Shown piece after piece: positions 2,323-60,663 of a stretch of DNA of 64,000 nucleotides (position 1 is the stretch's first letter; each line of letters opens with the position of its first letter). This stretch comes from Bacteroidota bacterium. GTDB lineage: Bacteria; Bacteroidota; Bacteroidia; CAILMK01. Under the pieces are notes generated by a model. It ran no database searches. It was not told the DNA's origin and worked only from the letters and a program-made list of their open reading frames with translations. The stretch spans positions 7,350-71,349 of the forward strand of contig DAIUCM010000001.1 of the NCBI GenBank assembly GCA_036846145.1, read 5' to 3'. The position numbers and the translations under genes were made by a program.

Positions 2323-3621
2323 ATGCGAGCCACCTTTACCATAGAAAACACATCCGTTTTTAAACGCAAACTACTCACTTTTTTGCAGCGCGAGCCGATT
2401 TATGCTTTATACAATTCCAACGATTTTTACAAGGATAAAGATTTGTCTTCGCGGCCATATTATCATTCCCACGATCTGCTTTGTGCTTTCGGTGTAAAAC
2501 GTGAAATTATAGCCGATAATGAAGCATTTTTCGACAAACTGATATATGCGCGCAAAACGCAAAGCTGGCTTTTCGGCTTTTTGGGTTACGATTTGAAAAA
2601 CGAAGTAGAAGACTTACAATCAAACAATTACGATGGCACCGAAATGCCGGATGCGTATTTTTTTGAGCCCGAAACGGTGTTGCTGTTGAATGAAAATCAA
2701 TTAACCATCTCAACTCAAAGCATTTTTTCACCAATTGATATATGGAAATCTATTTCTGAAGCTGATGAACTTGAAATTCAAGCCAATAAAAACCCTATAA
2801 AGCTCAAAAACCGCTTAAGCAAAGCAGAATATATTTCTAATGTAGAAAAGCTAAAAAATCATATTGTAGAAGGCGATATTTATGAAGTGAATTTTTGCCA
2901 GGAGTTTTATGCTGAAGATGCCGAAATTCATCCTGAACAATTATTTGCGCGAATCAACCAGCTTTCACCTCAGCCTTTTTCTGGCTTATTGAAATTGCAA
3001 GATAAATATGTGATCTGCGCCAGCATGGAGCGTTTCCTGAAAAAAGAAGGCAACAAACTCATTTCCCAACCTATTAAAGGAACCATCCGCCGCGGAAAAA
3101 CACCTGAAGAAGATTTAGAACTTCAAAAACAACTTGCCGAAGATGAAAAAGAGCGAGCTGAAAATATTATGATCGTGGATCTGGTTCGTAATGATCTCGC
3201 GCGTAGTTCACAATCCGGTTCTGTAAAAGTGGAAGAGCTTTGCGGTGTTTATGATTTCCCTTTGGTTCACCAGATGATCTCGACCGTTACATCTACTCTT
3301 CGCCCGGAAATTCCATATATAAATGCTATTAAAAATGCTTTTCCCATGGGTTCCATGACCGGCGCACCCAAAGTTCGAACCATGCAACTTATCGAGGAAT
3401 ATGAAAAAACTAAACGTGGCTTGTATTCCGGCGCTATCGGCTATTTCGCTCCAGATGATGATTTTGATTTTAATGTTGTGATTCGCTCTTTCATATATAA
3501 TCAAGCCAAAAAATACTTAAGCCTGCATGTTGGTTCTGCCATAACTTTTGATTCGGATGCGGAAAGGGAGTTTGAGGAATGCCAGATGAAGATTAGAGGG
3601 TTATTGCGGGCGTTGGAGTAA
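2323..3621 (+). CDS. pabB: chorismate-binding enzyme, aminodeoxychorismate/anthranilate synthase component I family
   Basis: 432-aa ORF with the chorismate-utilising C-terminal signature ...AFPMGSMTGAPKVRTMQLIEEYE...RGLYSGAIGYF... Confidence 0.75.
   Translation: MRATFTIENTSVFKRKLLTFLQREPIYALYNSNDFYKDKDLSSRPYYHSHDLLCAFGVKREIIADNEAFFDKLIYARKTQSWLFGFLGYDLKNEVEDLQSNNYDGTEMPDAYFFEPETVLLLNENQLTISTQSIFSPIDIWKSISEADELEIQANKNPIKLKNRLSKAEYISNVEKLKNHIVEGDIYEVNFCQEFYAEDAEIHPEQLFARINQLSPQPFSGLLKLQDKYVICASMERFLKKEGNKLISQPIKGTIRRGKTPEEDLELQKQLAEDEKERAENIMIVDLVRNDLARSSQSGSVKVEELCGVYDFPLVHQMISTVTSTLRPEIPYINAIKNAFPMGSMTGAPKVRTMQLIEEYEKTKRGLYSGAIGYFAPDDDFDFNVVIRSFIYNQAKKYLSLHVGSAITFDSDAEREFEECQMKIRGLLRALE
3491..3621 (+). 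repeat. direct repeat copy 1 (intact 3' end of pabB) matching 7651-7781
   Basis: Manual alignment of 3491-3621 against 7651-7781 gives 111/131 identities with no indels. Weaker similarity continues ~20 nt past the stop with an indel. Confidence 0.8.
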
Positions 3622-3708
3622 ATCGTATCTCAAAAATAATTTTTACAGCGTCATGGTTTGGCGTTGTGGTCGAATATTTTTGAAAGAAATTTTCGAAACT
3701 GATTTCCT

Positions 3709-3736
3709 CATATATGTTAGACCTAAAAAATGCTTT
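3709..3736 (+). repeat. bipartite motif copy CATATATG-N13-ATGCTTT, 32 nt upstream of the GmrSD-like gene
   Basis: ctCATATATGttagacctaaaaaATGCTTTaa. Confidence 0.7.
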
Positions 3737-3767
3737 AAATTGTGAAAAATAAATTATCAAAAACTAA

Positions 3768-5537
3768 ATGGAAACCCAATCAAACAACACATTCTCAATT
3801 AAGGCAAAAACTTGCACTTTAAAACTTAAAAGCCAAGAAGATGGCGACACAATTTTAGGCAAAAATGTCAAGTACGTTATTCCAATTTACCAACGACCTT
3901 ATTCATGGAAAGAAGAACAAATCAGGAAGTTCATCTCAGATATATTTAATTCTTTCTGGGGAACTGATGGCGATTCGGAATCTGAAGCTATGTTTATCGG
4001 AACAATGCAGTTGTCTGACGCGAAAGAGATTATTGATGGACAGCAAAGACTTACAACCTTTCTATTGCTTTTAAAAGTTTTAAAACAGAATTATCCAGAT
4101 TGCAGCCAATTAAAAGATATAACTTTAGATTGGTTGAATACCAAAGTGAACAGCGGAGAACAACAACTATATTTAAATGAAGTAATTTCAAGTAATTTAA
4201 CTTTAAATGATGAAACACTGAATCCGTATTTAAAAAATGCTTATTTAATTAATGAGCTGATTGAGGAAGAAATTAAAGACGAAGAAGGAAATTACTTAAA
4301 CTTTGATATTGATAAGTTTTCTAATCATTTACTGAGCAACATCTATTTCGTTGTAATTGAAACACGTGCCGGATTATCAAAAACGCTGCAAATCTTCAAT
4401 GCAATAAATACAACAGGTCTAGATTTAAACGGCGGAGATATTTTTAAAATAAGAATGTACGAATACCTGAAAGATAAAAAAGGTAAAGATGAAACGGCTT
4501 TTGAAGATATTAGCAGGCTTTATCAAAAAATTGACCAACTGAATGCGGAACTAAAAGATAATGTAACGGACATGCACGGCATTCTAAATATTTACCAGTA
4601 CATTTTGATAGCAAAATTTAATTTGCCTACTGTACTTTATAACTATGCTACTGATGTTTTCTTTGAACACTTATTTGATAGCATATTCAACATAAACCAG
4701 TGGAATCATTTCAGCAATGTGAAAAATGTTGAGCTTTCAATTAATGAAATAGACAGAATAATAGATGCCAGATTTGATTGGGAACGAAAATGGTATGCAA
4801 AAGCTGAAGACATGGGATGCTATAAATTAATGGCGACATCTCGATACGGCAAATATTGCGATGTTTTACCAACAATATTACTTTTTGCTGATAAAAATGC
4901 CGATAGATTCTATTTCACACGACAGTTAAGTAAAGTTTATGCAATTTACAGTATTCGCTTCTTAAAAGCTGTAAATGAAATTCATCGGTTTACATACTCT
5001 CTCATTAAAGATATTCTTAACAAGCCTTTTGAGGAAATAATGCGAACTATAAACCAAAAGATCGGTAAACCTGAAGATCATAATCAAGGATGGTACGATT
5101 TAAATTGGTTTTTGTCTGAGAACCTAACAGAAAATGATAAAAGAAAGAAACTGATTTGTCGCCTATCTGCATTACTAGAGGAAAACTATCAAACTGAAGA
5201 TCAGAAAGAAATTGAGAACCTAAAAGATAAACTTTTTCATAACGACATAGATATCGAACATATCCAATCTTATCACGACAGAGATGGCAACAAAAGAGAA
5301 GATGTTTGGAATGAATGGAAAGAGGCAATAAATTCAATTGGAAACTTAATGGTTTTAGAATCAAGATTAAATCGTTCAATCAGTAATAAACCATATAATG
5401 AAAAACTGGTAAGATACCCGGAAAGCGCATATAAAATTGCACGTAAACAGACAGAATTAGCGGAATGGAATCTGAAAAAATGTCTTGAACGCAAAGAAAA
5501 AGAAACAATGAAAATTGTAGTATATCTTTTCAGTTAA
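3768..5537 (+). CDS. GmrSD-family single-chain nuclease (N-terminal DUF262/ParB-like NTPase with DGQQR motif; C-terminal DUF1524 His-Me finger), putative type IV modification-dependent restriction/defence enzyme
   Basis: 589-aa ORF. N-terminal ...IPIYQRPYSWKEEQIRKFISDI...IIDGQQRLTTFLLLLKVL... matches DUF262. C-terminal ...DIDIEHIQSYHDRDGN...WNEWKEAINSIGNLMVLESRLNRSISNKPY... matches DUF1524/HNH-like. The gene is markedly more AT-rich than flanking housekeeping genes. Confidence 0.8.
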   Translation: METQSNNTFSIKAKTCTLKLKSQEDGDTILGKNVKYVIPIYQRPYSWKEEQIRKFISDIFNSFWGTDGDSESEAMFIGTMQLSDAKEIIDGQQRLTTFLLLLKVLKQNYPDCSQLKDITLDWLNTKVNSGEQQLYLNEVISSNLTLNDETLNPYLKNAYLINELIEEEIKDEEGNYLNFDIDKFSNHLLSNIYFVVIETRAGLSKTLQIFNAINTTGLDLNGGDIFKIRMYEYLKDKKGKDETAFEDISRLYQKIDQLNAELKDNVTDMHGILNIYQYILIAKFNLPTVLYNYATDVFFEHLFDSIFNINQWNHFSNVKNVELSINEIDRIIDARFDWERKWYAKAEDMGCYKLMATSRYGKYCDVLPTILLFADKNADRFYFTRQLSKVYAIYSIRFLKAVNEIHRFTYSLIKDILNKPFEEIMRTINQKIGKPEDHNQGWYDLNWFLSENLTENDKRKKLICRLSALLEENYQTEDQKEIENLKDKLFHNDIDIEHIQSYHDRDGNKREDVWNEWKEAINSIGNLMVLESRLNRSISNKPYNEKLVRYPESAYKIARKQTELAEWNLKKCLERKEKETMKIVVYLFS

Positions 5538-5558
5538 TCAACCATACATTTCACCAAC

Positions 5559-6974
5559 TTGTCTAAACGAGGCTACATATCCCGCTATTTGCTGATTCTG
5601 AAAAAGCTAAAAGCAAAAAAGTATTGTTCTTTCGAGGAGCTGCAAAGCTATATTACCGACCAGTTGCATTACCTGCAAATGCATGACGATTCACTGCACA
5701 TTGGTTTTTCACCGAGAACTTTACAGCGGGATATTGGTGAAATCAGCAAAACTTTCGGGATTTATATTGAATATTGTCGGAAGGCAAAAGGCTATTTCAT
5801 CAGTTCTACGCAGGCAGAAAACATGAATTTCATGCGGATGGTAGAAGCTTTCGATATGTTCAACACTTTAAAAACGGTAGAAGACCTTTCACCATATGTT
5901 CATTTCGAGAAGCGGAAACCGCAAGGCACTGAACATTTTGCACCGGCGCTGGAAGCCATTCAGAAACAAAAAGTTATAAACTTCCAGTATTTTAAATTCG
6001 AGGAAGAAGAAGCGCGGGAAAGAACAGTGAAGCCATTGCTGCTGAAAGAATTCAAAAGCCGCTGGTATATTGTGGCGCAGGAAATGGGCGTTAATAAGAT
6101 AAAAACTTTCGGGCTTGACAGAATTTCCGAGCTTGTATTAACGCAGGAATCTTTTGAAAAACCACAGGATTTTAACGCGGAAGCATTTTTTGCCAATTGT
6201 TTCGGCATCATTAATCAGCCCAATGCGTACCCTGAAAATATCATTCTCTCATTCACAAAACTCCAGGGACAATACATTAAAACTTTTCCGCTACACGAAA
6301 CCCAGCAAATTTTAACGGACAATGAATTCCAAATCAAGATAAAGCTGCGCTTACATATTACGCACGATTTACTGATGGAATTACTTTCTTTCGGAGAAAA
6401 TGTGGAAGTTATATCACCTTTCAGCCTGCAGCAAGAATTGTACAATATCCACCAGAAATGCCTGCGCAAATACGATGTTTTCAGTGATGCCAATATTCAA
6501 AAATCTAAAGCTGAAAATATTTTAAAAACACTAAACAGGTTATTTTACAGCACTTTACAAATCAGCGATTACGGCAGCGAGCGATTCAGATTAAATGCCA
6601 ACCGATTCCGCGAATTGATCAACGCAGCGCAAAACTACAATATGGTTTTCAAGGAAGCGCCGCTTGAAAATGTAATGGTTGATCTGAAAAATCTACCGCA
6701 AGCAGCAATAAAACTTCTAACGCAAATCAACGAAATAAAAGCAAATCGACTGGAAGCTGCGGAAACTAACGATTTTGAATTAGCTGCCAAATTGCGCGAC
6801 CGGGAAAAACCGCTGATGCAGAAGTTATTCACCGATTATTATAGCCAAGGCTTTAAATATTTCAATGCTTCGGCTTATAAACCCAATATTATCCGGTTTT
6901 CATATACCGGCCATCCATTAGATTATTTATTGTACAAAGCCATCCAACGGCAGCCGCAATTGCAGGATTTCTAA
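5559..6974 (+). CDS. wHTH-WYL-WCX transcriptional regulator (BrxR/CapW-like) with ~160-aa C-terminal extension containing a UVR (UvrB/UvrC-type) motif
   Basis: 471-aa ORF 21 nt downstream of the nuclease gene. N-terminal wHTH: ...YCSFEELQSYITDQ...SPRTLQRDIGEI... WYL core: ...YQYFKFEEEEARERTVKPLLLKEFKSRWYIVAQEMGVNKIKTFGLDRISEL... WCX-like segment: ...LLMELLSFGENVEVISPF... C-terminal UVR motif: ...NDFELAAKLRDREKPLMQK... Confidence 0.7.
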   Translation: MSKRGYISRYLLILKKLKAKKYCSFEELQSYITDQLHYLQMHDDSLHIGFSPRTLQRDIGEISKTFGIYIEYCRKAKGYFISSTQAENMNFMRMVEAFDMFNTLKTVEDLSPYVHFEKRKPQGTEHFAPALEAIQKQKVINFQYFKFEEEEARERTVKPLLLKEFKSRWYIVAQEMGVNKIKTFGLDRISELVLTQESFEKPQDFNAEAFFANCFGIINQPNAYPENIILSFTKLQGQYIKTFPLHETQQILTDNEFQIKIKLRLHITHDLLMELLSFGENVEVISPFSLQQELYNIHQKCLRKYDVFSDANIQKSKAENILKTLNRLFYSTLQISDYGSERFRLNANRFRELINAAQNYNMVFKEAPLENVMVDLKNLPQAAIKLLTQINEIKANRLEAAETNDFELAAKLRDREKPLMQKLFTDYYSQGFKYFNASAYKPNIIRFSYTGHPLDYLLYKAIQRQPQLQDF

Positions 6975-6998
6975 AACAAAGGTCACAACAGCTCTTCG

Positions 6999-7027
6999 CC
7001 ATATATGCCATTGATAAGAAATGCTTT
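6999..7027 (+). repeat. bipartite motif copy between WYL regulator and yefM
   Basis: cCATATATGccattgataagaaATGCTTTaa. Confidence 0.7.
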
Positions 7028-7089
7028 AAACGTTACACGAACCTTTCTGTACAATATTTCGTACATTTGAAAGTACAAGTTTGTAAATT

Positions 7090-7344
7090 ATGAAAGCAGT
7101 TACGATTTCATCGCTCAGGAATAAAATGAAAGAATACTTTGACGCAGTTAGCAAATCGCAGGAAGTAATTGTAGTTCCGAGAAATAGCAATGACGATGAT
7201 GCGGTTGTAATTATTTCAATAAAAGAATATAACTCGCTAATTGAAACGGAACATCTGCTTTCGACAAAATCAAACAGGCAAAGGCTGCAGGAATCTATAA
7301 ATCAAGCAAAAAGCGGCGAAACAGTTCCTTTTAATTTAGATTAA
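7090..7344 (+). CDS. yefM: type II antitoxin, Phd/YefM family
   Basis: 84-aa [73 protein letters not shown]... The fold and length are typical of YefM. It sits 9 nt upstream of a yoeB-like frame. Confidence 0.85.
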
Positions 7345-7353
7345 CGTATCGCC

Positions 7354-7631
7354 ATGAATATAGAATTCACTGCGCATGCATGGGAAGAGTTTATTTATTG
7401 GCTGGAAACAGATATAGAAATTGCGAATAAGATTAAAGAACTGCTGAGATCCATACGCCAAAGTCATTCCAGGGAATCGGGAAACCAGAACCATTAAAAT
7501 ATTATTTGAAAGGTTATTGGTCGAGAAGAATAACTGCAGAACACCGATTGGTTTATACTGTGATTGGCAAGAAAAGTGAAAATCAAAAGTGTCTCATCAT
7601 CCAATGCAAATACCATTATGACGATAAATAA
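7354..7631 (+). pseudogene. yoeB: YoeB-family toxin, frameshifted (single-base deletion near 7463)
   Basis: Frame A from ATG 7354 gives MNIEFTAHAWEEFIYWLETDIEIANKIKELLRSIRQS then runs out of frame to a stop at 7499-7501. The -1/+2 frame continues (S)FQGIGKPEPLKYYLKGYWSRRITAEHRLVYTVIGKKSENQKCLIIQCKYHYDDK to a stop at 7629-7631. Restoring one C in agtcattcc to agtccattcc yields a contiguous YoeB-like protein. Confidence 0.75.
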
Positions 7632-7650
7632 AAAAGCATATATTACTTCA

Positions 7651-7781
7651 TCATATATAATCAGCACAAAAAATACTTAAGCCTGAATGTTATTTCTGCC
7701 ATTACTTTTGATGCGAATGCAGAAAAGGAGTTTGAGGAATGCCAGGTGTAGATTAGAGGGCTATTGAGAACACTGGAATAA
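7651..7781 (+). repeat. direct repeat copy 2 (degenerate, non-coding remnant of pabB 3' end)
   Basis: 85% identical to 3491-3621 at a constant offset of 4160 nt. The pabB reading frame is interrupted here by stops (..aat act taa gcc tga..). Confidence 0.8.
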
Positions 7782-14652: not shown

Positions 14653-16014
14653 TTAAGCAACACCGCCTAAAGTATTTCTTCCTTTAATTCTACCAGTTTT
14701 CATAAGCCCGTCGTAATGCCTCATCAACAAATGACTTTCCACCTGTTGCAAAGTATCAAGTACAACACCAACCATAATCAAAAGAGATGTTCCACCATAA
14801 AATTGCGCGAATTGGCTATTTACACCCATTCTTCCGGCAATAGCTGGAAAAATCGCAATGAATGCTAAAAAAACTGCTCCTGGAAGTGTAATTCTACTCA
14901 TTATTGTATCAATATAATCCGCAGTTGCAGCTCCAGGTTTAACTCCAGGAATAAAACCACCGTTCTTCTTTAATTCGTCAGAAATTTGAACAGGATTAAT
15001 TGTAACAGCAGTATAGAAATAAGTAAATAAAATAATTAAGAGTGCAAATACAATATTGTATAATACAGACTGATGATTTGTCAAAGCACCTCCAATTCCT
15101 TGCCAGGTGCTGGAATTTGGGAAAAACTGTCCAACCGTCGCTGGAATAAACATTAACGCTTGAGCAAAAATGATTGGCATAACACCGGCAGCATTAAGTT
15201 TTAATGGTAAAAACTGCCTTGCACCCCCTTCCTGGTATTTACCAACTACTCTTTTGGCATACTGCAATGGTATTCTTCTAGTGCCTTGAACTAAGGCTAT
15301 TACAGCAACAACAACCAGAAGCAATGAAACAATCTCAATTAAGAAAATCACAAGACCGCCACCGGCCTCATTCATTCTTGAATCTAATTCAGCTATTAAA
15401 GAAACCGGCAATCTGGCAATAATACCTATCATTATAATTAAAGATACGCCATTTCCAATTCCACGGTCAGTAATTTTTTCACCTAACCACATAACAAACA
15501 TTGTTCCTGTAGTTATAAGTATAATATTAACAAACATGAACATTCCCATTGACATTATTCCGGGATTAATTATCGGTGTTATTGCACCAGGCACCATATT
15601 TCTTAAATTAATCAAGAAGCTAGCAGCCTGAACAGCTGCAATAGCAATAGTTAACCAACGAGTCATCTGGTTAATTTTCTGACGTCCAGATTCACCTTCT
15701 TTCTGTAGTTTTTGGAAATACGGTACTGCAATTCCTAATAGCTGGATAACTATAGAAGCCGAAATGTAAGGCATTATACCTACAGCGAATATTGATGCGC
15801 GTGAAAATGCTCCTCCGGCAAACATATTAATTATGCCGAAAAGCCCTTCTGATGCTCTTGAACTATATGCCTGTAATGCGTTGGGATCTATACCCGGTAA
15901 TACAACATATGAGCCTAATCTATAGATTAATAATAAACCTAATGTAATTAAAATTCTTGAGCGAAGCTCTTCAATTTTAAAAATATTCTGAACTGTTTGT
16001 ATAAGACCTTTCAT
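14653..16014 (-). CDS. secY: preprotein translocase subunit SecY
   Basis: 453 aa, 10-TM profile, conserved position after rplO. Confidence 0.97.
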   Translation of the reverse strand: MKGLIQTVQNIFKIEELRSRILITLGLLLIYRLGSYVVLPGIDPNALQAYSSRASEGLFGIINMFAGGAFSRASIFAVGIMPYISASIVIQLLGIAVPYFQKLQKEGESGRQKINQMTRWLTIAIAAVQAASFLINLRNMVPGAITPIINPGIMSMGMFMFVNIILITTGTMFVMWLGEKITDRGIGNGVSLIIMIGIIARLPVSLIAELDSRMNEAGGGLVIFLIEIVSLLLVVVAVIALVQGTRRIPLQYAKRVVGKYQEGGARQFLPLKLNAAGVMPIIFAQALMFIPATVGQFFPNSSTWQGIGGALTNHQSVLYNIVFALLIILFTYFYTAVTINPVQISDELKKNGGFIPGVKPGAATADYIDTIMSRITLPGAVFLAFIAIFPAIAGRMGVNSQFAQFYGGTSLLIMVGVVLDTLQQVESHLLMRHYDGLMKTGRIKGRNTLGGVA

Positions 16015-17536: not shown

Positions 17537-18091
17537 TTATTTACCAGCTGTTTTACCTGCCTTTCTACGAACTACTTCACCTACAAATCTTATACCTTTA
17601 CCTTTATACGGTTCTGGTTTGCGTAGCGACCTAATCTTGGCTGCTACCTGACCTAAAAGTTGCTTATCTGCACTTTGTAAAGTAATTATTGGATTCTTAC
17701 CTTTCTCAGTTAATGTTGAAACGGAAACTTCTGTCGGCAATTCCACCATTACTTCATGTGAATATCCGATCACCAAGTCTAATAACTGACCCTGATTTGT
17801 CGCTTTATATCCAATACCTACCAATTCCTGCTTAAGCTCGAAACCATCGGAAACTCCTTTAACCATGTTAAAGATAATTGAACGATATAAACCGTGCATT
17901 GCTTTGTGACGCTTCTGCTCAGATGGTCTTTCTACCAAAATTTCTGATCCTTCTACTTTTACTGCAATATCAGTATCAATCTTCTCTGATAAAGTACCTT
18001 TAGCCCCTTTCACAGTGATAATATTATTATCGGCAACTTCAACGCTTACGCCTGAAGGAATATTTATTGGTAATTTTCCGATACGTGACAT
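17537..18091 (-). CDS. rplF: 50S ribosomal protein L6
   Basis: 184 aa, MSRIGKLPINIPSGVSVEV... Confidence 0.97.
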   Translation of the reverse strand: MSRIGKLPINIPSGVSVEVADNNIITVKGAKGTLSEKIDTDIAVKVEGSEILVERPSEQKRHKAMHGLYRSIIFNMVKGVSDGFELKQELVGIGYKATNQGQLLDLVIGYSHEVMVELPTEVSVSTLTEKGKNPIITLQSADKQLLGQVAAKIRSLRKPEPYKGKGIRFVGEVVRRKAGKTAGK

Positions 18092-33047: not shown

Positions 33048-33075
33048 CATATATGGTTTTGCTGAAAAATGCTTT
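33048..33075 (+). repeat. bipartite motif copy 39 nt upstream of rpoC
   Basis: gCATATATGgttttgctgaaaaATGCTTTtg. Confidence 0.7.
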
Positions 33076-33085
33076 TGTTCAGTTT

Positions 33086-33162
33086 GAAAGTTGTAAGGTT
33101 GCAAGGTTGTAAAGTTGCCGCGATGCGCAGAAACCTTTCAACCTTGCAACTTTTCAACTTTC
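33086..33162. repeat. imperfect 24-bp inverted repeat (hairpin) in rpoB-rpoC spacer
   Basis: Arms GAAAGTTGTAAGGTTGCAAGGTTG (33086-33109) and CAACCTTGCAACTTTTCAACTTTC (33139-33162) are separated by 29 nt. Flanked by two copies of the CATATATG...ATGCTTT motif. Confidence 0.7.
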
Positions 33163-33173
33163 TAAACCAATTC

Positions 33174-33201
33174 CATATATGCAACCTCAAAAAAATGCTT
33201 T
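33174..33201 (+). repeat. bipartite motif copy overlapping the rpoB stop codon
   Basis: cCATATATGcaacctcaaaaaaATGCTTTag. The rpoB stop (complement) is at 33200-33202. Confidence 0.7.
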
Positions 33202-37009: not shown

Positions 37010-37051
37010 GGAAGTATTTTTTAATTAAACAATATATGGAAGTATATAAAT

Positions 37052-37093
37052 GGGAATAGACCTGGTCCCAATTACTTTGGGATCAGGTCTTCC
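37052..37093 (-). promoter_or_regulatory. rplL-rpoB intergenic hairpin (putative attenuator/partial terminator)
   Basis: Imperfect ~15-bp stem GGAATAGACCTGGTCCC-aattacttt-GGGATCAGGTCTTCC downstream of rplL and upstream of rpoB. This is the classic position of the L10 operon attenuator. Confidence 0.45.
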
Positions 37094-37120
37094 TATGCTG
37101 CTGGGCTGTTAAAATGCAGA

Positions 37121-37555: not shown

Positions 37556-38080
37556 TTATGCTTCAGTCTTTTCAGACAAGGTTTTTAAGATACCTGCAAT
37601 CTTGTTTCCGCCTGATTTCAGGCCGCTAACAACATTTTTGATTGGTGATTGCAATATTGCAACAACATCAGCAATAAGTTCTTCGCGAGATTTCAGAGTG
37701 ATTAACATGTCAAGATTCTCATCACCAACATATAAAGATTCCTCAATATAAGCAGCCTTTAAAACAGGTTTCGGATGGCTTGCACGGAACTCTTTTATAA
37801 GTTTTGCAGGCGATTTTGAATTATCCGCAAACATTACTGATGAAGGACCTTTTAATGTTTCCACTAAACCATCGGCCTGTATGTTTGCTTTTTCGAGCGC
37901 TTTTTCAATCAGCGTATTTTTTACTACCTGTAATGTAACACCACGCTCAAAGCATAACCTGCGTAATGCGTTTGTCTGGTTTACCGATAAAGTAGAGATA
38001 TCTGCTACGTAAAAATTCTTTGAGGCGGTAAATGCTTCACTTAAAGCATTTACTATTTCTTCTTTATTTTCTCGTCTCAT
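37556..38080 (-). CDS. rplJ: 50S ribosomal protein L10
   Basis: 174 aa, position between rplA and rplL. Confidence 0.93.
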   Translation of the reverse strand: MRRENKEEIVNALSEAFTASKNFYVADISTLSVNQTNALRRLCFERGVTLQVVKNTLIEKALEKANIQADGLVETLKGPSSVMFADNSKSPAKLIKEFRASHPKPVLKAAYIEESLYVGDENLDMLITLKSREELIADVVAILQSPIKNVVSGLKSGGNKIAGILKTLSEKTEA

Positions 38081-38797: not shown

Positions 38798-39241
38798 TTA
38801 TTCGTTCCAAGGTGCGTTTCCGGAAACTGTAATTCCCATGCTTCTTGCAGTACCTGCAACCATGCGCATTGCAGATTCTACTGTAAATGCGTTGAGATCG
38901 GGCATTTTATCTTCAGCAATAGCTCTTACCTGTTCCCAGTTTACAGAGCCTACTTTATTACGGTTTGGCTGTGCAGAACCACCTTTAATTTTTGATACTT
39001 CCAGCAACTGTACTGCAACCGGTGGAGTTTTAATGATAAACTCGAAAGATTTATCGCTGTAAACTGTAATTACTACAGGCAAAACTTTACCTGCACGGTC
39101 TTGAGTCCTGGCATTGAATTGCTTGCAGAACTCCATGATGTTTACACCTTTTGAACCAAGCGCAGGACCAATTGGCGGCGAAGGGTTGGCTGCTGCACCT
39201 TTAACCTGTAGCCTGATAAAACCTGTTACTTCTTTAGCCAT
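38798..39241 (-). CDS. rplK: 50S ribosomal protein L11
   Basis: 147 aa, [40 protein letters not shown]... Confidence 0.97.
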
Positions 39242-42448: not shown

Positions 42449-43336
42449 TTAACCCTTGGGATGGGCTTGTTTGTAAATAGTTTTTAATCTTTCTATTGAG
42501 TTGTGGGTATAAATTTGCGTGGCGGCAAGGTTAGCATGGCCGAGCAATTCTTTAATAGCATTAATTTCCGCGCCATTGTTCAGCAGGTGCGTAGCGTATG
42601 TATGGCGCAAAACATGCGGACTGTTTTTTTGAATGCTGCTTACCATGCTTATGTATTTTTTTACTGCACGGTTCACAAACATGGGGTAAAGCGGCTGACC
42701 TTTATCGGTTACCAGTAATGTTGTACTGGTAAATCCATAAAGCATTTTTTGCTGCAGGTATATATGAATTGCCTCGGCAGTTTGCGCGGGAACAGGTATA
42801 ATGCGCTCTTTATTACGCTTTCCTGTAACTTTAATACATGATTCGGCCAGATTTATATTTTTCTCTTGCAATGATATTAGCTCGCTCAAACGCATCCCCG
42901 TACCATATAGCAGCTCGAGGATAAGCTTATCCCGTTGACCATAAAAATCGTCGGGGAATTCTATATATTCATTATCGAATAAATGGTTTGTTTCTGTTTC
43001 TGTAAGCCATTGAAAAAGCCTTTTCTCTGTTTTAACACTTTGTATTGCAGCCATTGGGTTTATTGCTACAGCTCCGCTCCTGAGCAGGAACTTATAAAAA
43101 GTATTAAGCGCAACCAGTTTACGGTTAATGCTGCGGGCGCTGAGCTTTTGCTGGGTTTGCTCGTAGATCCACGATTTTACCATAGCAGGTTTTACAACCG
43201 ATTCATCCGCTACGGAGTACTGAACTTGCAGAAATGCAAAAAACTGCGCTACGTCATTAACATAGGCAGTTCCTGTATGCTTCGAATATCTTCTCTCGTT
43301 TTGTAGGTAATCTGCAAATTGCGCAAGCTTACTCAT
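42449..43336 (-). CDS. tyrosine-type site-specific recombinase, XerC/XerD family
   Basis: 295 aa with catalytic ...RHTYATHLLNNGAEINAIKELLGHANLAATQIYTH... Sits between rpsU and hpf, a conserved chromosomal arrangement in Bacteroidota, so it is more likely a chromosome-dimer-resolution Xer than a mobile-element integrase. Confidence 0.8.
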   Translation of the reverse strand: MSKLAQFADYLQNERRYSKHTGTAYVNDVAQFFAFLQVQYSVADESVVKPAMVKSWIYEQTQQKLSARSINRKLVALNTFYKFLLRSGAVAINPMAAIQSVKTEKRLFQWLTETETNHLFDNEYIEFPDDFYGQRDKLILELLYGTGMRLSELISLQEKNINLAESCIKVTGKRNKERIIPVPAQTAEAIHIYLQQKMLYGFTSTTLLVTDKGQPLYPMFVNRAVKKYISMVSSIQKNSPHVLRHTYATHLLNNGAEINAIKELLGHANLAATQIYTHNSIERLKTIYKQAHPKG

Positions 43337-44785: not shown

Positions 44786-45069
44786 ACGTTATTGTGAAAT
44801 TTAGTACAAAAGTAAGGGTTTTAGGCGGAAAACCGGGAATCGGCATAAGGTCAATTTAAATATCCTGCCGCAGTCTAAAATTAAAATATTATTAAAAATA
44901 ATTACAAAAACCCTTCCTGCATCAAATAAACAGATATTTTATAAGCTACAAACTCCTTAGAAGCCTAAACCATAAGAATATCAAAGCTTTATGATAAAAA
45001 TTACTTAAATTTATACACTGAAAATTAAATGGATAGAACAATTAATTTTATTCTTTAAAAATTAAAAGA

Positions 45070-45543
45070 ATGTGTTTTTTGCGTAAAAACCTGGTTGTAT
45101 ATTTTGCAGCTATTACGCTGCTTATTATGCTATCGTGCGCTTTTACGGCCGACAGGCGGTTAAGATTCAGGAAATACAGCTGGATAGATATTGGAAGATC
45201 TGCCAGGTCTCAAAACAAGATGATTTTTGTACTGGTAACCGGCAAATACTGCCCAACCAGCAAAAAAATGAATCGTGTGGTATCTGAACCAAAAGTGTGT
45301 GAGTTCTACAACAATAATTTTGTAAGCACAACTTTTGATGCGCAAAACCCAACACAATATTACAGAGCCAGCAATTGGGGCGTTTCCAGTATCCCAGCCT
45401 TGGTTTTTTTAACTAAAAACAGGGAAGTAGTTTATATTTCTCAAGGTTACCAGGATGCTAACGGTATGATTAGCGAAGCTAAAACAGCCCTGGAAATGAA
45501 TAATCCAGCCAAGGCAAAGCAGAAATCCAATGGCGCTGAATAG
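45070..45543 (+). CDS. secreted thioredoxin-fold protein, paralog 1 (CPTS variant of CXXC)
   Basis: 157 aa. Signal peptide, then ...KMIFVLVTGKYCPTSKKMNRVV...FYNNNFVSTTFDAQNPTQYYRASNWGVSSIPALVFL... This pattern is alignable position-by-position with ORFs at 46468 and 47126. Confidence 0.7.
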   Translation: MCFLRKNLVVYFAAITLLIMLSCAFTADRRLRFRKYSWIDIGRSARSQNKMIFVLVTGKYCPTSKKMNRVVSEPKVCEFYNNNFVSTTFDAQNPTQYYRASNWGVSSIPALVFLTKNREVVYISQGYQDANGMISEAKTALEMNNPAKAKQKSNGAE

Positions 45544-45867
45544 CAATGTATATTCCTGTATTATTTAAGCCGGCCTTTTAATAAATTTCCTAATTGCCAT
45601 TCTGGTATTTACCAATACCCATATAGAATTGCTGTAAAATGCTTCGCTGTAAGCTTAAATGCTGCTCATTCTTTTTTATGAAATCTATAAAACTATAATT
45701 ATGGCAGCTTTCTTGGAGAAACTATTAGTTTGCCAAAGCATTTTTAGTGGATTATATATATGATGCCTTATTAAAATGAATCTCAAGATTTTAAACAAAG
45801 ACTTCGCCAGATTAACTTTTGGCCTTTACTGGTTATTGTAATTTTACTTCCGCTTGGATTATCCAAG

Positions 45868-46110
45868 TTGAAGTATGGATCTGATGAATTTCTTAAGCGT
45901 ATGCCAGATGGTCATTCTAATGTTGGGATTGTAATATCGGCGTGCTCTATAATAGAAGTAATTCTGATAGTTATAACATTTATTGCTTATTTGTTAAAAG
46001 AACAAATCGTCCACAATCAACTTATTCATTTTATAGCGCTATTGCTTTTGTTTATAATCGGAGTTGTTCCAGGTTTGTTAGTACTTTGGACAGTGTGGTT
46101 CAGGATTTAA
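45868..46110 (+). CDS. hypothetical small membrane protein (doubtful)
   Basis: 80-aa ORF with two hydrophobic stretches in an otherwise gene-free 0.9-kb AT-rich spacer. No family recognised. Confidence 0.25.
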   Translation: MKYGSDEFLKRMPDGHSNVGIVISACSIIEVILIVITFIAYLLKEQIVHNQLIHFIALLLLFIIGVVPGLLVLWTVWFRI

Positions 46111-46467
46111 TCAGCTTTCACGCTAGTAAAGCATTTTTTCAGGCTTGTATATATGGATTTCATAAATTAGTCGCCTTTACTGGCTTTGCAATTTGCCCAT
46201 TTGTGCCGCTCATTCAGGGTTTTGCAATATATTCCGCAAATGCTTAAGCTTACTATAATCGTCAATTATTCGTAATAATCCTATTGGTGCATTTAACTTT
46301 TAGCGACAGGAATATTCTCCGGTTAAATCAGTATTTGGATTTTTTTTCACCCTTCCCCAACCAATAATAATATTATCACATCATTGCTTTTGTAAAGTGA
46401 AAATTGCAATATCACAAACTAACCATTTAACTATTAATTAATTACAATACCTAAATTTAATATTATT

Positions 46468-46884
46468 ATGTCAAAGATATTTTTTGCACTATTATTAAGC
46501 ACAGCATTTTTGTTCCAGTCTTTTACAAGCGATAAGAAAATAAAATTCAGAGAAAACGGATGGAGCGAGATTGGCAAAGCCGCCAAAACGGAAGATAAAA
46601 TGATATTTGTACTCGTAACCGGCGATTACTGCTCCGCCAGCAGAAAGATGAAGCGAGTGCTGCAGGATGGTAAAGTGGGTGAGTTTTACAATAAGAACTT
46701 TGTCAGTACAAATTTCGACGCTGAAAACTTTATACAGCACTACCGCGCAAGCAACTGGGGTGTTACCAGTGTACCAGCTATGGTTTTCCTGGATAAGAAC
46801 CGTAAAGTGATTCATAAAAAAGAGGGCTTTTTAAATGCAGAAGGCATGCTGAAAGAAGCGCAGGAAGCCATGGCAAAACAATAA
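46468..46884 (+). CDS. secreted thioredoxin-fold protein, paralog 2 (CSAS variant of CXXC)
   Basis: 138 aa, ...KMIFVLVTGDYCSASRKMKRVL...FYNKNFVSTNFDAENFIQHYRASNWGVTSVPAMVFLD... Confidence 0.7.
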   Translation: MSKIFFALLLSTAFLFQSFTSDKKIKFRENGWSEIGKAAKTEDKMIFVLVTGDYCSASRKMKRVLQDGKVGEFYNKNFVSTNFDAENFIQHYRASNWGVTSVPAMVFLDKNRKVIHKKEGFLNAEGMLKEAQEAMAKQ

Positions 46885-47125
46885 CCTTCCAATTACAGTA
46901 TTACAGAAACCTTACCTGACAGAAAAGCCAACAAATGTACCGATCTAAACAAAAAGCATCCACAAAAAATCTCATAGACAACATATTATATGCACCGGGC
47001 TTTGTTTTTATATGTTAAAAACTAAACTTTGCAGCAAAATATTACATGCGTAAGCACCTACCCAAAATTGCGCATCAGTTAAGGTAATTATCCGTATCTT
47101 TATATTACATTAAATAACCTCTATT

Positions 47126-47683
47126 ATGGTTTTGGGTAAGTGGCCTTTAAGGCTTGTATTAATTGGATTGGCATTTACGTTACAGGCGTATACCGTTGGA
47201 AATGAGAAACAACAGAAAATAAAATTCAACGAGCTGGCCTGGCGTTACATTTGCAAAGAGGCTACCGCAAAAGAAAAACTTATTTTTATTTACGTTGGCG
47301 CGGATTATTGCAGCGCCTGCCGGCGGATGGAAACCAGTTTGCGCAGCCCTAAACTTGGCGGTTTTTACAACAATGCGTTTGTAAATGTACGTTTTGATGC
47401 AAAAGATTTCATTCAGCACCAGCGGGCAACAAGCTGGGGCGTTACAAGCGTGCCAACCATGGTTTATTTAAATGAAAAGAGAGAGGTAGTACACATGGTT
47501 ACAGGCTTTCGTGATGCGGAAGGCATGATGCGTGAAGCCCAGATAGCGATGGAAAAAAGCGGCAAATCCATTCATATACCTATAGAAATTGCTGATGAAG
47601 TTGAGGAAATTGAAACCGGCAACCCTTGTGATGAAGACAAAACTGAAATGAAACCTGTAGAAACGCCCGAAGAAACCAAATAG
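47126..47683 (+). CDS. secreted thioredoxin-fold protein, paralog 3 (intact CSAC motif) with acidic C-terminal tail
   Basis: 185 aa, ...KLIFIYVGADYCSACRRMETSL...FYNNAFVNVRFDAKDFIQHQRATSWGVTSVPTMVYLN... plus ...IEIADEVEEIETGNPCDEDKTEMKPVETPEETK. Confidence 0.7.
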   Translation: MVLGKWPLRLVLIGLAFTLQAYTVGNEKQQKIKFNELAWRYICKEATAKEKLIFIYVGADYCSACRRMETSLRSPKLGGFYNNAFVNVRFDAKDFIQHQRATSWGVTSVPTMVYLNEKREVVHMVTGFRDAEGMMREAQIAMEKSGKSIHIPIEIADEVEEIETGNPCDEDKTEMKPVETPEETK

Positions 47684-47685
47684 CG

Positions 47686-47755
47686 CATATATATTATAGC
47701 CTTAAAATGCTTTGTGTATTAAAACGCAAAGCATTTTTTGGTTAAGGCATATATG
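47686..47755. repeat. two motif copies in inverted orientation (47686-47713 forward, 47728-47755 reverse)
   Basis: gCATATATAttatagccttaaaATGCTTTgtgtattaaaacgcAAAGCATtttttggttaaggCATATATGt. Confidence 0.75.
47704..47739 (+). terminator. intrinsic terminator after thioredoxin-fold paralog 3, built from two inverted copies of the ATGCTTT half-motif
   Basis: AAAATGCTTTGTGT-attaaa-ACGCAAAGCATTTT then TTGG. The 14-bp stem has one G.U, and the T-run is partly within and partly after the stem. Confidence 0.6.
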
Positions 47756-47941
47756 TAAATTCAATATCATTTTGTTAAGGATTTTCTTGTCAAATTTCTG
47801 TAATAATTTCGGTGCGGATTGCGTGAAGATTTGATTCGTGTCTATTAGCAAATACTAAAAGTTGGCGTTAGTGGACTGACACATTTCATAAGCCCCAAGG
47901 CATTACTCTAATAACAAATTACAAAACCTTTCGAAAAGAAA

Positions 47942-47974
47942 AAAAGGAGCAATCAAATTAATGATTACTCCTTT
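47942..47974 (-). terminator. intrinsic terminator downstream of the lipoprotein/beta-barrel gene pair
   Basis: AAAGGAG-N19-CTCCTTT hairpin. On the minus strand it is followed by a T-run (complement of gaaaagaaaaaaa 47931-47943). Confidence 0.5.
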
Positions 47975-48158
47975 ATTATACAATCAGCTCAATAAAAGTA
48001 ACAATTGCAGATGGCCTGATTAAATATATTAAATTATAATCTAGTAGACTGGCCTTGAATTATGCACTGTAACATTAATTACAGCAATGTAAATTATGCG
48101 CTAATATAAAATAGAAACGTTGCGTGTGCGAAGCTATTTTTTAACCAGCCAATGTTAA

Positions 48159-48926
48159 TTATTGCCTGCAAATAAGCCTGCCGCTGCCGGTTAGCGTAAA
48201 ATCGCCGTAAAACTTCATATCGCAGAAAGTAGCCACCAAATTTCCGTTCTCAATGGTTACGTTTACACGGCCTTTTTCCTCAGATGAAGGGTAATACCAC
48301 CTGCCGCCAAGCAGTACGCGTATCATAACTTCATCGGCTCCCATAAAGGATAAGCTTTTGCTTGATATAGGATAAGACCTGGCTGAGGTTGGCCTTGTGG
48401 CAGTTCCAAAAAACAGCTCAAAATCGCTTTGGCTGTTGCCGCCTGAAATTGAAAATTTATTATCGTTACTATGGCTTCCGCCGCAATACGTATTGTTGTA
48501 CTTTAAGTCGTAACCCAGGCCGTTAAACCTTATAACATTATCGGGTATGGTACATTTTACAGCTGGCGGCGTTACTTTAACCAATACTTCGGCGGCCTCG
48601 CTTCTGCAATAGTTGCGTGTATTATATATCTTATAGATGCCGGCTTTTTCCTGCGTTGCATTGTAAACGGTAGCATTTTCGGAGTAGTAAGAAACATCAA
48701 CATCTTTTGGCCCAACTATAGTAACAGTTGTGTTATCATCGGGCCTGCGTGGCATGGGTATTAAAATGGTTTCGCCTTCCTGCACTTCTACAACGGTTTG
48801 CGTTAATACCGGCTTTTTTACTGTTTCACAGCCGGGAGGCGCACTCTCATCATAGCAGCTGCTTAGCGAAAATATTATTGTAAGCGGCAAAAGCATTCTG
48901 CCTAAACTATTTTTTAGCGTATTCAT
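48159..48926 (-). CDS. hypothetical lipoprotein
   Basis: 255 aa. Signal peptide with lipobox ...IIFSLSSC-YDES. No recognised domain. Confidence 0.55.
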   Translation of the reverse strand: MNTLKNSLGRMLLPLTIIFSLSSCYDESAPPGCETVKKPVLTQTVVEVQEGETILIPMPRRPDDNTTVTIVGPKDVDVSYYSENATVYNATQEKAGIYKIYNTRNYCRSEAAEVLVKVTPPAVKCTIPDNVIRFNGLGYDLKYNNTYCGGSHSNDNKFSISGGNSQSDFELFFGTATRPTSARSYPISSKSLSFMGADEVMIRVLLGGRWYYPSSEEKGRVNVTIENGNLVATFCDMKFYGDFTLTGSGRLICRQ

Positions 48927-48963
48927 ATATGTAAGCGGTTAATTATTTGTGTTGATTTTTATA

Positions 48964-57551: not shown

Positions 57552-58076
57552 TTAAAACAAATATAAAGATAAAAGTTTCTGTTTGAAATTGTGGTTTCCA
57601 TATGTGGTTTGGCTGGAAAATGCTTTCGTAATTTGTTGGCATTTGCTGGCGCGAGCTTGTAGCTCGTGCATCGTTCTATTGTAGTTGGCACGAGCTACAA
57701 GCTCGCGCCAGCGATTGGGCTCATTTAACCTAAGCGATCTTTTATTAATTTTAAATGTATCAAAGGCCAGGTTCAGAGTTAAATCCAATTTTTTAGCCCT
57801 ATTAATTATGCTATCAACTTGTATTGAATTACTTTTCAAAAAGGTTAAATTATTTCTTATTTCTCCATATAGTATTTTGTAAATCTTTTGGTTTTCTACT
57901 GGCATGAAGTACTCCGGATGTGAAAAATACTCTAATTGGCTGGTATTCAAGTTTTGTGTATATTCCGAAGAAATGCTGTCTGCAATTAGATTGAAATTAT
58001 TTCCGGAATTAGGATTTTTACAGCTCAGATTTGTAATTAGCACCAACAACAAGAATATTGAGAAAGATACTTTCAT
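57552..58076 (-). CDS. hypothetical lipoprotein whose 3' end runs through a repeat element
   Basis: Taken from the internal ATG (complement 58074-58076): MKVSFSIFLLLVLITNLSC-KNPN lipobox. The track's 58160 start is a TTG. The last ~55 codons are encoded by a CATATGTG...ATGCTTT motif copy plus a perfect 25-bp inverted repeat. Confidence 0.5.
   Translation of the reverse strand: MKVSFSIFLLLVLITNLSCKNPNSGNNFNLIADSISSEYTQNLNTSQLEYFSHPEYFMPVENQKIYKILYGEIRNNLTFLKSNSIQVDSIINRAKKLDLTLNLAFDTFKINKRSLRLNEPNRWRELVARANYNRTMHELQARASKCQQITKAFSSQTTYGNHNFKQKLLSLYLF
57645..57712. repeat. perfect 25-bp GC-rich inverted repeat with 18-nt loop
   Basis: GCTGGCGCGAGCTTGTAGCTCGTGC (57645-57669) / GCACGAGCTACAAGCTCGCGCCAGC (57688-57712). 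Exact reverse complements. Confidence 0.85.
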
Positions 58077-58191
58077 TAAGTAATAACGATTTTTCGGCAA
58101 GATAATATATGTAACAATAAAAATGCCCCAACGCTTTTGCGTTGAGGCATTTTCAATCAATGTTATATATGCGTACGGAGCGTGGATGATA

Positions 58192-60360: not shown

Positions 60361-60663
60361 TTGTCTGAAATGTAATTTTTTTGATTTTGGTGGTTGATAT
60401 GATTTTTAAGTAATTAATGGGATATAAAATTGAAATTCGATAAAGGTTAGACCTGCAACTTCTTGAAAAAGTGGCAGGCCTGCGCGCTGAACTATTAGCT
60501 ACATACAAGTTATTTCATTTATAATCCCAATGCATTTTTCATCATTAATATATATGTAAACGAAATCAAACGAATATCAAAATCAAATAAAATCAAAGTT
60601 CTGACATGTATTTAAACCAGAATTAAAAAATTTGCGTTAGGCAAAAAGAAGGAGATAAAGATT

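Follow-up and report, generated by a model that had tools for sequence, protein, structure and literature searches.

Known repeated motifs and terminators

Short motifs that are spread through a genome and double as parts of transcription terminators have been documented mainly for DNA uptake sequences. Those of the Neisseriaceae and Pasteurellaceae (DUS/USS) are lineage-specific, occur about once per kb, in hundreds to thousands of copies per genome, in either orientation with an intergenic excess, lie preferentially near terminators, and form a terminator stem where two copies face each other. About half of the DUS/USS copies lie within predicted terminators (bioRxiv 10.1101/2025.10.24.684340), and about 55% of the high-confidence terminators of Neisseria contain an uptake sequence (PMC1852404). 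The leading AA of the Pasteurellaceae USS pairs with the T-tail (PMC1852404).

A second group, the REP, BIME and REPIN elements of Proteobacteria, comprises abundant intergenic elements that are often found at gene 3' ends beside hairpins and are sometimes arranged as inverted doublets. Proteins that act at the DNA level, such as gyrase and IHF, are the presumed ligands of BIMEs. In Bacteroidetes, the phylum of interest here, the promoter consensus is TAnnTTTG, and Rho-independent terminators are used in Bacteroides (PMC7366714).

The motif described below belongs to an uncultured lineage of Bacteroidia that is known from metagenome assemblies only, and it shares traits with both groups of elements. 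Two facing copies of it follow the stop codon of a thioredoxin-like gene within the window, by which the whole stretch of DNA analysed (64 kb) is meant.

A lineage-specific bipartite motif

The motif reads CATATAT-N10-AAAAATGCTTT, spans 28 bp and has 18 specified positions. Its two parts are rigidly coupled in the 64-kb window, where CATATAT is found at the fixed offset in 20 of the 23 exact AAATGCTTT sites. When up to three mismatches in the 18 positions are allowed, the 64 kb contain 37 copies (21 on the + strand and 16 on the - strand), against 0.35 expected from shuffled sequence. Across the genomes that carry it, the motif recurs every 1.2-1.7 kb. In a logo derived from 59 copies of four genomes, a weak T.GC is seen within the N10 spacer as well. 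The three conserved patches (CATATAT, T.GC and AAAAATGCTTT) are spaced by about 10 bp, which places them on one face of the helix. The N10 spacer is otherwise variable between copies, and CATATATG is the only self-complementary part of the motif.

Copies are concentrated between genes: 27 of the 37 are intergenic in a window of which 18% is intergenic DNA, a density about 12-fold higher than within genes, where about a quarter of the copies are found. Their orientation is mixed and independent of the direction of the neighbouring genes, and the spacers of convergent, divergent and co-directional genes are occupied alike. Three of the four convergent-gene spacers hold a copy with at most three mismatches, and the fourth holds a copy with four mismatches that is exact in the related assembly L025. 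More than 90% of the copies are solitary, and single copies form no hairpin on folding.

The motif is present at similar density in three related assemblies, L025/L026, L027 (from the NCBI MAG GCA_054315435.1) and L108, with 17 copies in 20.5 kb of L025. A further sequence, L001, comes from SRR3961739, a sample carrying the same sequence, and is identical to the window. Beyond these relatives, 80 other Bacteroidetes metagenome loci (72-80% GroEL identity, about 0.95 Mb) contain 0-1 motif matches in total. An exact-motif scan of contigs from other genomes returned at least 23 unrelated matches, single copies among the matches listed, and a scan of viral contigs returned 19 single matches and no motif-rich phage. 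Nothing relevant to the motif sequence was found in a literature search. The motif is regarded as an undescribed, lineage-specific element.

Twelve copies are common to the window and L025 in position and orientation. Across them, identity is 92% at the motif positions, 65% in the N10 spacer and 45% in the flanks, and the alignments show the copies as conserved islands amid diverged intergenic DNA. The difference between motif and flanks indicates that the motif is maintained by selection or drive. An exact copy inside a XerC-like integrase gene is found in three genomes (window 42739-42766, L025 5764-5791 and L027 1125-1152, all on the - strand); all 18 motif positions are identical there, against differences at about half of the positions of the N10 spacer, which points to a probable constraint at the DNA level inside a coding sequence. 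Upstream of groES, L025 carries at about 17700-17860 an insertion of about 90 nt that is absent from the window (about 60440-60480), and in which an additional motif copy (17761) precedes short hairpins rich in GC. Some copies may thus arrive together with small inserted segments.

Other copies inside or beside genes were noted as well. Four of them, with 0-2 mismatches each, lie in one enzyme gene (2521-2548 and 2717-2744 on the - strand, 3314-3341 and 3492-3519 on the + strand). This gene, 2323-3621, encodes a genuine chorismate-binding enzyme (Chorismate_bind, E = 1e-83), and the copy at 3314 encodes ...AIKNAFP immediately ahead of the conserved GSMTGAPK segment. The 3' end of the same gene is duplicated: a 131-nt direct repeat, 85% identical (3491-3621 and 7651-7781), brackets an island of about 4 kb (approximately 3622-7650) that encodes a GmrSD-type restriction endonuclease (3768-5537) as well as a WYL/WCX-domain protein (5559-6974). 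The arrangement resembles that of a defence island which has integrated at the gene 3' end, and motif copies are present near both ends of the island (3709 and 7000). At 48904-48931 on the - strand, a copy with two mismatches overlaps the start of gene 48159-48926, whose start codon is the ATG within CATATATG; the motif encodes MNTLKNSL there.

The thioredoxin-like gene and the inverted pair

The features of the locus are as follows.

47126-47683, + strand: thioredoxin-fold gene, 185 aa, with a signal peptide and the active-site motif CSAC; TAG stop codon at 47681-47683
47686-47713, + strand: forward motif copy, CATATATATTATAGCCTTAAAATGCTTT, with 1 mismatch to consensus (TAAAATGCTTT)
47728-47755, - strand: reverse motif copy, CATATATGCCTTAACCAAAAAATGCTTT, exact at all 18 specified positions
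47704-47737, + strand: core hairpin, arms AAAATGCTTTGTGT (47704-47717) and ACGCAAAGCATTTT (47724-47737), loop ATTAAA (47718-47723)
47707-47739, + strand: the hairpin read as a terminator, with an 11-bp stem (47707-47734, dG -13.3) and then a U-run to 47739
47685-47756, no strand assigned: imperfect palindrome of 72 nt that includes both motif copies, with their CATATAT elements 11 nt outside the stem
47943-47974, - strand: canonical terminator of the convergent gene 48159-48926 (- strand), -17.5 kcal/mol, tail score -5.08

The product of the gene matches the Pfam families Thioredoxin_2 and Thioredox_DsbH, and only three other homologue clusters were found for it among 5.8 billion proteins. It is the third of three secreted thioredoxin-fold paralogs encoded on the same strand (45070-45543, 46468-46884 and 47126-47683). 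Only the third keeps the CxxC motif (CSAC); the other two read CPTS and CSAS at this position and are probably not redox-active. An earlier note on this DNA, made from the sequence alone, had taken the paralogs as one operon with the inverted pair as its terminator. The scan of the gap between paralogs 2 and 3 found no terminator, but the gaps measure 924 and 241 nt, and in L025 a separate strong terminator follows the second paralog, so a three-gene operon is doubtful.

The two copies face each other across a gap of 14 nt (47714-47727), and their ATGCTTT halves pair, as that note had claimed, into a stem of 14 bp, of which 13 are Watson-Crick pairs and one is G-U. The loop is of 6 nt, the stem is AU-rich with four G-C pairs in 14, and its final 4 bp (GTGT/ACGC) are not part of the motif. 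The self-complementary elements said to lie about 10 nt outside the stem do flank it on both sides, 11 nt out, although only the right-hand one is an exact CATATATG and the left-hand one reads CATATATA. The outer helices of the 72-nt palindrome are broken by internal loops because the N10 spacers of the two copies differ.

RNA folding, which had been suggested as a check, yields a stable structure. The 46-nt core folds at -20.1 kcal/mol (z = -7.27) and the 98-nt context at -31.4 kcal/mol (z = -5.45), and in neither case was any of 200 shuffled sequences as stable. The hairpin ranks 8th in stability among all 50-nt windows of both strands, and within the top five of the intergenic ones. The - strand transcript folds less well (-22.3 kcal/mol) and has four U's only. 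No match to Rfam at the gathering threshold is found at the hairpin; at the E-value threshold, 45000-48400 gives only weak chance matches on the neighbouring terminator and none at the hairpin.

Terminator anatomy of the hairpin

The hairpin is predicted, with a probability of roughly 0.6, to be an intrinsic (Rho-independent) terminator of gene 47126-47683, and possibly it also serves the paralog upstream of this gene. It is most likely assembled from two convergent copies of the lineage-specific intergenic motif. A T-run, TTTTTT, is present at 47734-47739 as previously claimed, but it does not simply follow the full stem: the AAAA at the base of the stem takes up four of its T's, which leaves no more than UU unpaired behind the 14-bp stem, and the structure is better described as a stem of 10-11 bp followed by U5-6. 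In the 11-bp version, the matching A-run (47704-47707) lies upstream of the stem; a version with 10 bp has -12.2 kcal/mol. The distance from the stop codon is 20 nt for the full stem and 23 nt for the 11-bp stem, rather than the 22 nt given before.

The whole window was scanned for single hairpins whose stem closes immediately ahead of a T-rich tail, with a TransTermHP-style tail score. Eight intergenic candidates were obtained, 18-184 nt past same-strand stop codons, and the thioredoxin hairpin is one of them (dG -13.3 with the 11-bp stem, tail score -4.86, 23 nt from the stop). The other seven, which follow tuf, groEL and several other genes, have dG values of -13 to -21 and tail scores of -3.8 to -5.2. 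The hairpin thus combines a stable stem-loop, UUUUU after the 11-bp stem and a position downstream of a same-strand stop codon, and its anatomy matches that of the seven others in the window, so this part of the earlier claim stands while its operon part is doubtful. A simpler terminator scan did not list it, since only two T's are free past the maximal stem. No ORF of 50 aa or more is present in 47684-48158. On the opposite strand, the canonical terminator at 47943-47974 would stop transcripts first, and the motif hairpin would serve mainly the + strand.

The proposed mechanism is that RNA polymerase would transcribe AAAA-UGCUUUGUGU-AUUAAA-ACGCAAAGCA-UUUUUU, that the 10-14-bp stem would form in the RNA exit channel, and that the U-run would weaken the RNA-DNA hybrid, leading to release about 55-60 nt past the stop codon. 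The AAAAATGCTTT half would be pre-adapted to such a role, as one copy could give the A-run and a stem arm, and an inverted copy could give the complementary arm and the T-run. Intrinsic terminators, including bidirectional ones with an A-run and a T-run, are alike in the 10-14-bp stem, the 6-nt loop, the U-run, the upstream A-run and the intergenic position; their stems usually measure about 5-14 bp and their loops 3-8 nt. In contrast to them, the stem described here is AU-rich, both of its arms are copies of a genome-wide motif, and relatives lack it at the orthologous site.

At the orthologous gene end of L025, neither motif nor hairpin is found in the 88-nt spacer, and in L108 one forward copy lies 40 nt past the stop codon, without a partner. 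The hairpin is therefore either recent or dispensable. The comparison suggests that the forward copy may be older and that the reverse copy was added later.

The motif in other putative terminators and hairpins

The groEL terminator is the second clear case in which the motif takes part in a terminator.

58122-58171, - strand: groEL terminator (58122-58151) together with a motif copy (58144-58171), CATATAT-aacattgatt-GAAAATGCCTC

The 5' arm and A-run of this terminator (-25.7 kcal/mol) are the 3' half (AAAATGC) of the motif copy. Its parts follow in the order stop codon, CGCATATATA, 9-10 nt, GAAAATGCCTCAACGC, loop and GCGTTGGGGCATTTTT; it was aligned with its L025 ortholog and with the thioredoxin hairpin, and L025 retains the design at 15364-15413. 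Likewise, the AAATG half falls within a hairpin arm in one copy located in a tRNA spacer (window 41700, L025 4713).

A motif half lies within the stem in two of the eight terminators of the window. Proximity is more common: a copy with up to four mismatches is found within 30 nt of six of the eight intergenic terminators, where random intergenic placement gives 1.96 (P = 0.005), and at up to three mismatches the count is four of eight against 1.62 expected (P = 0.056). The motif tends to lie at transcription-unit 3' ends, and on occasion its AAAAATGC half has been taken up as A-run and stem arm. Co-option of the motif into terminator parts, as the earlier note held, is thus real in the thioredoxin and groEL cases, and rare. 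The other half of that proposal, that the motif originates from terminator-like palindromes, is unsupported, because more than 90% of the copies are solitary and unstructured; they are conserved as single copies.

Several further hairpins lie close to motif copies or resemble parts of them. In the rpoB-rpoC spacer (33048-33201), a hairpin of very high stability (33099-33148, -27.6 kcal/mol, - strand) lies between two exact tandem copies. The spacer between rplL and rpoB holds, at 37049-37098, the hairpin with the lowest folding energy of the window (-31.3 kcal/mol); it is 10 nt from a motif copy (37011-37038) that is conserved in L025, and may be an rplL-rpoB attenuator or terminator. A perfect 15-bp inverted repeat, GCTTGTAGCTCGTGC...GCACGAGCTACAAGC (57653-57704, about -27 kcal/mol), is located 28 nt downstream of the copy at 57599-57626; it is coding according to the rough ORF call, and the matching region of L025 is intergenic. 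Inverted half-motif pairs of the form AAATGC...GCATTT occur five times in the window against 1.1 in shuffled sequence, and those inside rplJ and rplA (38022-38059 and 38885-38907) are conserved in L025 (1028-1065 and 1892-1914).

Alternative explanations

It could be argued that two copies of a protein-binding DNA motif stand head to head incidentally, any function being protein binding to double-stranded DNA, and that the RNA hairpin is a by-product without a role in termination. Chance placement gives 0.26 convergent pairs with a gap of at most 20 nt in the window (P of at least one = 0.24), and the pair is the sole close convergent one among about 59 copies (about 91 kb, four genomes), so inverted pairs are not enriched; the survey that the earlier note had proposed, with one close inverted pair in about 59 copies, does not exceed what motif density predicts and goes against it on this point. 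Neither L025 nor L108 keeps the pair, the motif, conserved as single copies, is independent of orientation, and a distance of 21 bp separates the two TGC cores, which would place the patches of both copies all on one helix face. Against this explanation, pairing in the stem goes on for 4 bp outside the motif, which is possible in 3.3% of random copy pairs, and the joint chance expectation is about 0.01 (3.3% x 0.26). The rarity of such an extension argues that the hairpin is more than a chance juxtaposition; it looks shaped, though pairs in general are not enriched. Moreover, a U-run follows the stem, 20-23 nt past the stop codon as in the other terminators of the window, and the conserved canonical terminator of groEL uses the same motif half. 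An incidental hairpin is therefore considered unlikely, and the terminator reading is preferred. The 72-nt palindrome could also be a small mobile or duplicative element of the REPIN/MITE type inserted downstream of the gene, as it is an inverted doublet with a short spacer that is missing at orthologous sites, and as the insertion upstream of groES in L025 brings an extra motif copy with hairpins. However, the 72-74-nt doublet has no second copy in the window or in any locus compared, and only a motif half of 12-15 nt recurs; the N10 spacers of the two arms differ, the motif unit forms no hairpin by itself and is no imperfect palindrome, doublets are rare, no target-site duplication was seen, no RAYT, IS200-like or other associated transposase gene was noticed in the window, and about a quarter of the motif copies, unlike REP/BIME/REPIN elements, lie inside genes. 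The uniqueness of the unit led to the rejection of this idea, which is given very little credence. A separate thought, an invertible segment between inverted copies (e.g. 60333/60529), was dropped because most neighbouring copies are tandem.

As for the motif itself, it may be an uptake-enhancing sequence similar to DUS/USS or another tag of self-DNA, the thioredoxin and groEL structures being inverted-repeat terminator forms at an early stage of co-option. Its copy number (37 in 64 kb of the window and 17 in 20.5 kb of L025) and lineage restriction agree with the roughly one copy per kb of lineage-specific DUS/USS; its information content is high, its orientation mixed and its intergenic excess strong, four copies in both orientations lie inside the chorismate-binding enzyme gene, and copies are maintained between genomes and sit near terminators; of the uptake sequences of Neisseriaceae and Pasteurellaceae, about half fall inside predicted terminators. 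In the predicted thioredoxin terminator, two facing copies form the stem, and the initial A-run of the motif pairs with the T-tail as in the Pasteurellaceae USS. On the other hand, no sign of competence or of an uptake receptor was seen in this lineage, with no competence genes among the annotated proteins, which cover part of the window, and the literature search found no Bacteroidetes uptake sequence. The motif belongs to a different phylum, its sequence is unrelated, and with 28 bp, 18 specified positions and a strict N10 it exceeds known uptake sequences in length and in bipartite character. The excess of close inverted copies forming terminator stems, typical intergenically for DUS and USS, is absent here (one pair in about 59 copies), and the conservation of the same variants at the same sites suits purifying selection on binding sites equally well. 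Consequently, an uptake or self-recognition tag appears improbable. The relationship to terminators that the earlier note had equated with that of DUS/USS holds insofar as co-option is seen; with two of eight terminators against about 55% in Neisseria, and with pairs not enriched, the resemblance is an analogy, and membership of that family is not claimed. Promoter function, whether housekeeping or by an alternative sigma factor, with the pair as two converging promoters, has hardly any plausibility. The fixed spacing of two AT-rich parts, the intergenic location and the terminal TTT(G) recall the sigma-ABfr promoter (-33 TTTG / -7 TAnnTTTG), and several forward copies lie 18-35 nt upstream of start codons (e.g. 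3709, 11767 and 39277). Sequence and spacing do not fit, however: TAnnTTTG is missing from the motif, and canonical TAnnTTTG -7 boxes are found separately, e.g. ahead of rpsL and ahead of a tRNA gene. About half of the copies between genes are directed away from their neighbours or lie antisense to them, orientation being independent of the genes; copies occupy convergent-gene spacers, and those of the thioredoxin pair would fire into each other. A housekeeping promoter was rejected on the grounds of orientation, convergent-gene spacers and separate boxes. Sigma-54 was rejected as well, because TTGGC...TGC, which some copies contain, misses the required -24/-12 spacing by one base, and a shared coded peptide (I-Y-x-x-x-E-K-C-F) was discarded because the copies occupy every frame and either strand and are mostly intergenic.

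Biological meaning

The hairpin behind the thioredoxin-like gene is itself an ordinary terminator candidate, and the motif is the more interesting object. The main role of the motif is probably recognition of double-stranded DNA by a protein, and a site for a global DNA-binding protein, in the manner of BIME or IHF, is a reading of it as good as the analogy to DUS/USS. The locus is one of two clear cases in which this abundant, lineage-restricted motif doubles as terminator parts. For genome annotation, the copies should be treated as neither promoters nor mobile elements. If the motif were a signal for uptake or self-recognition, it would represent the first such system outside Neisseriaceae and Pasteurellaceae; and if it is either such a signal or the site of an unknown global DNA-binding protein, it would be a new system in a phylum with none known.
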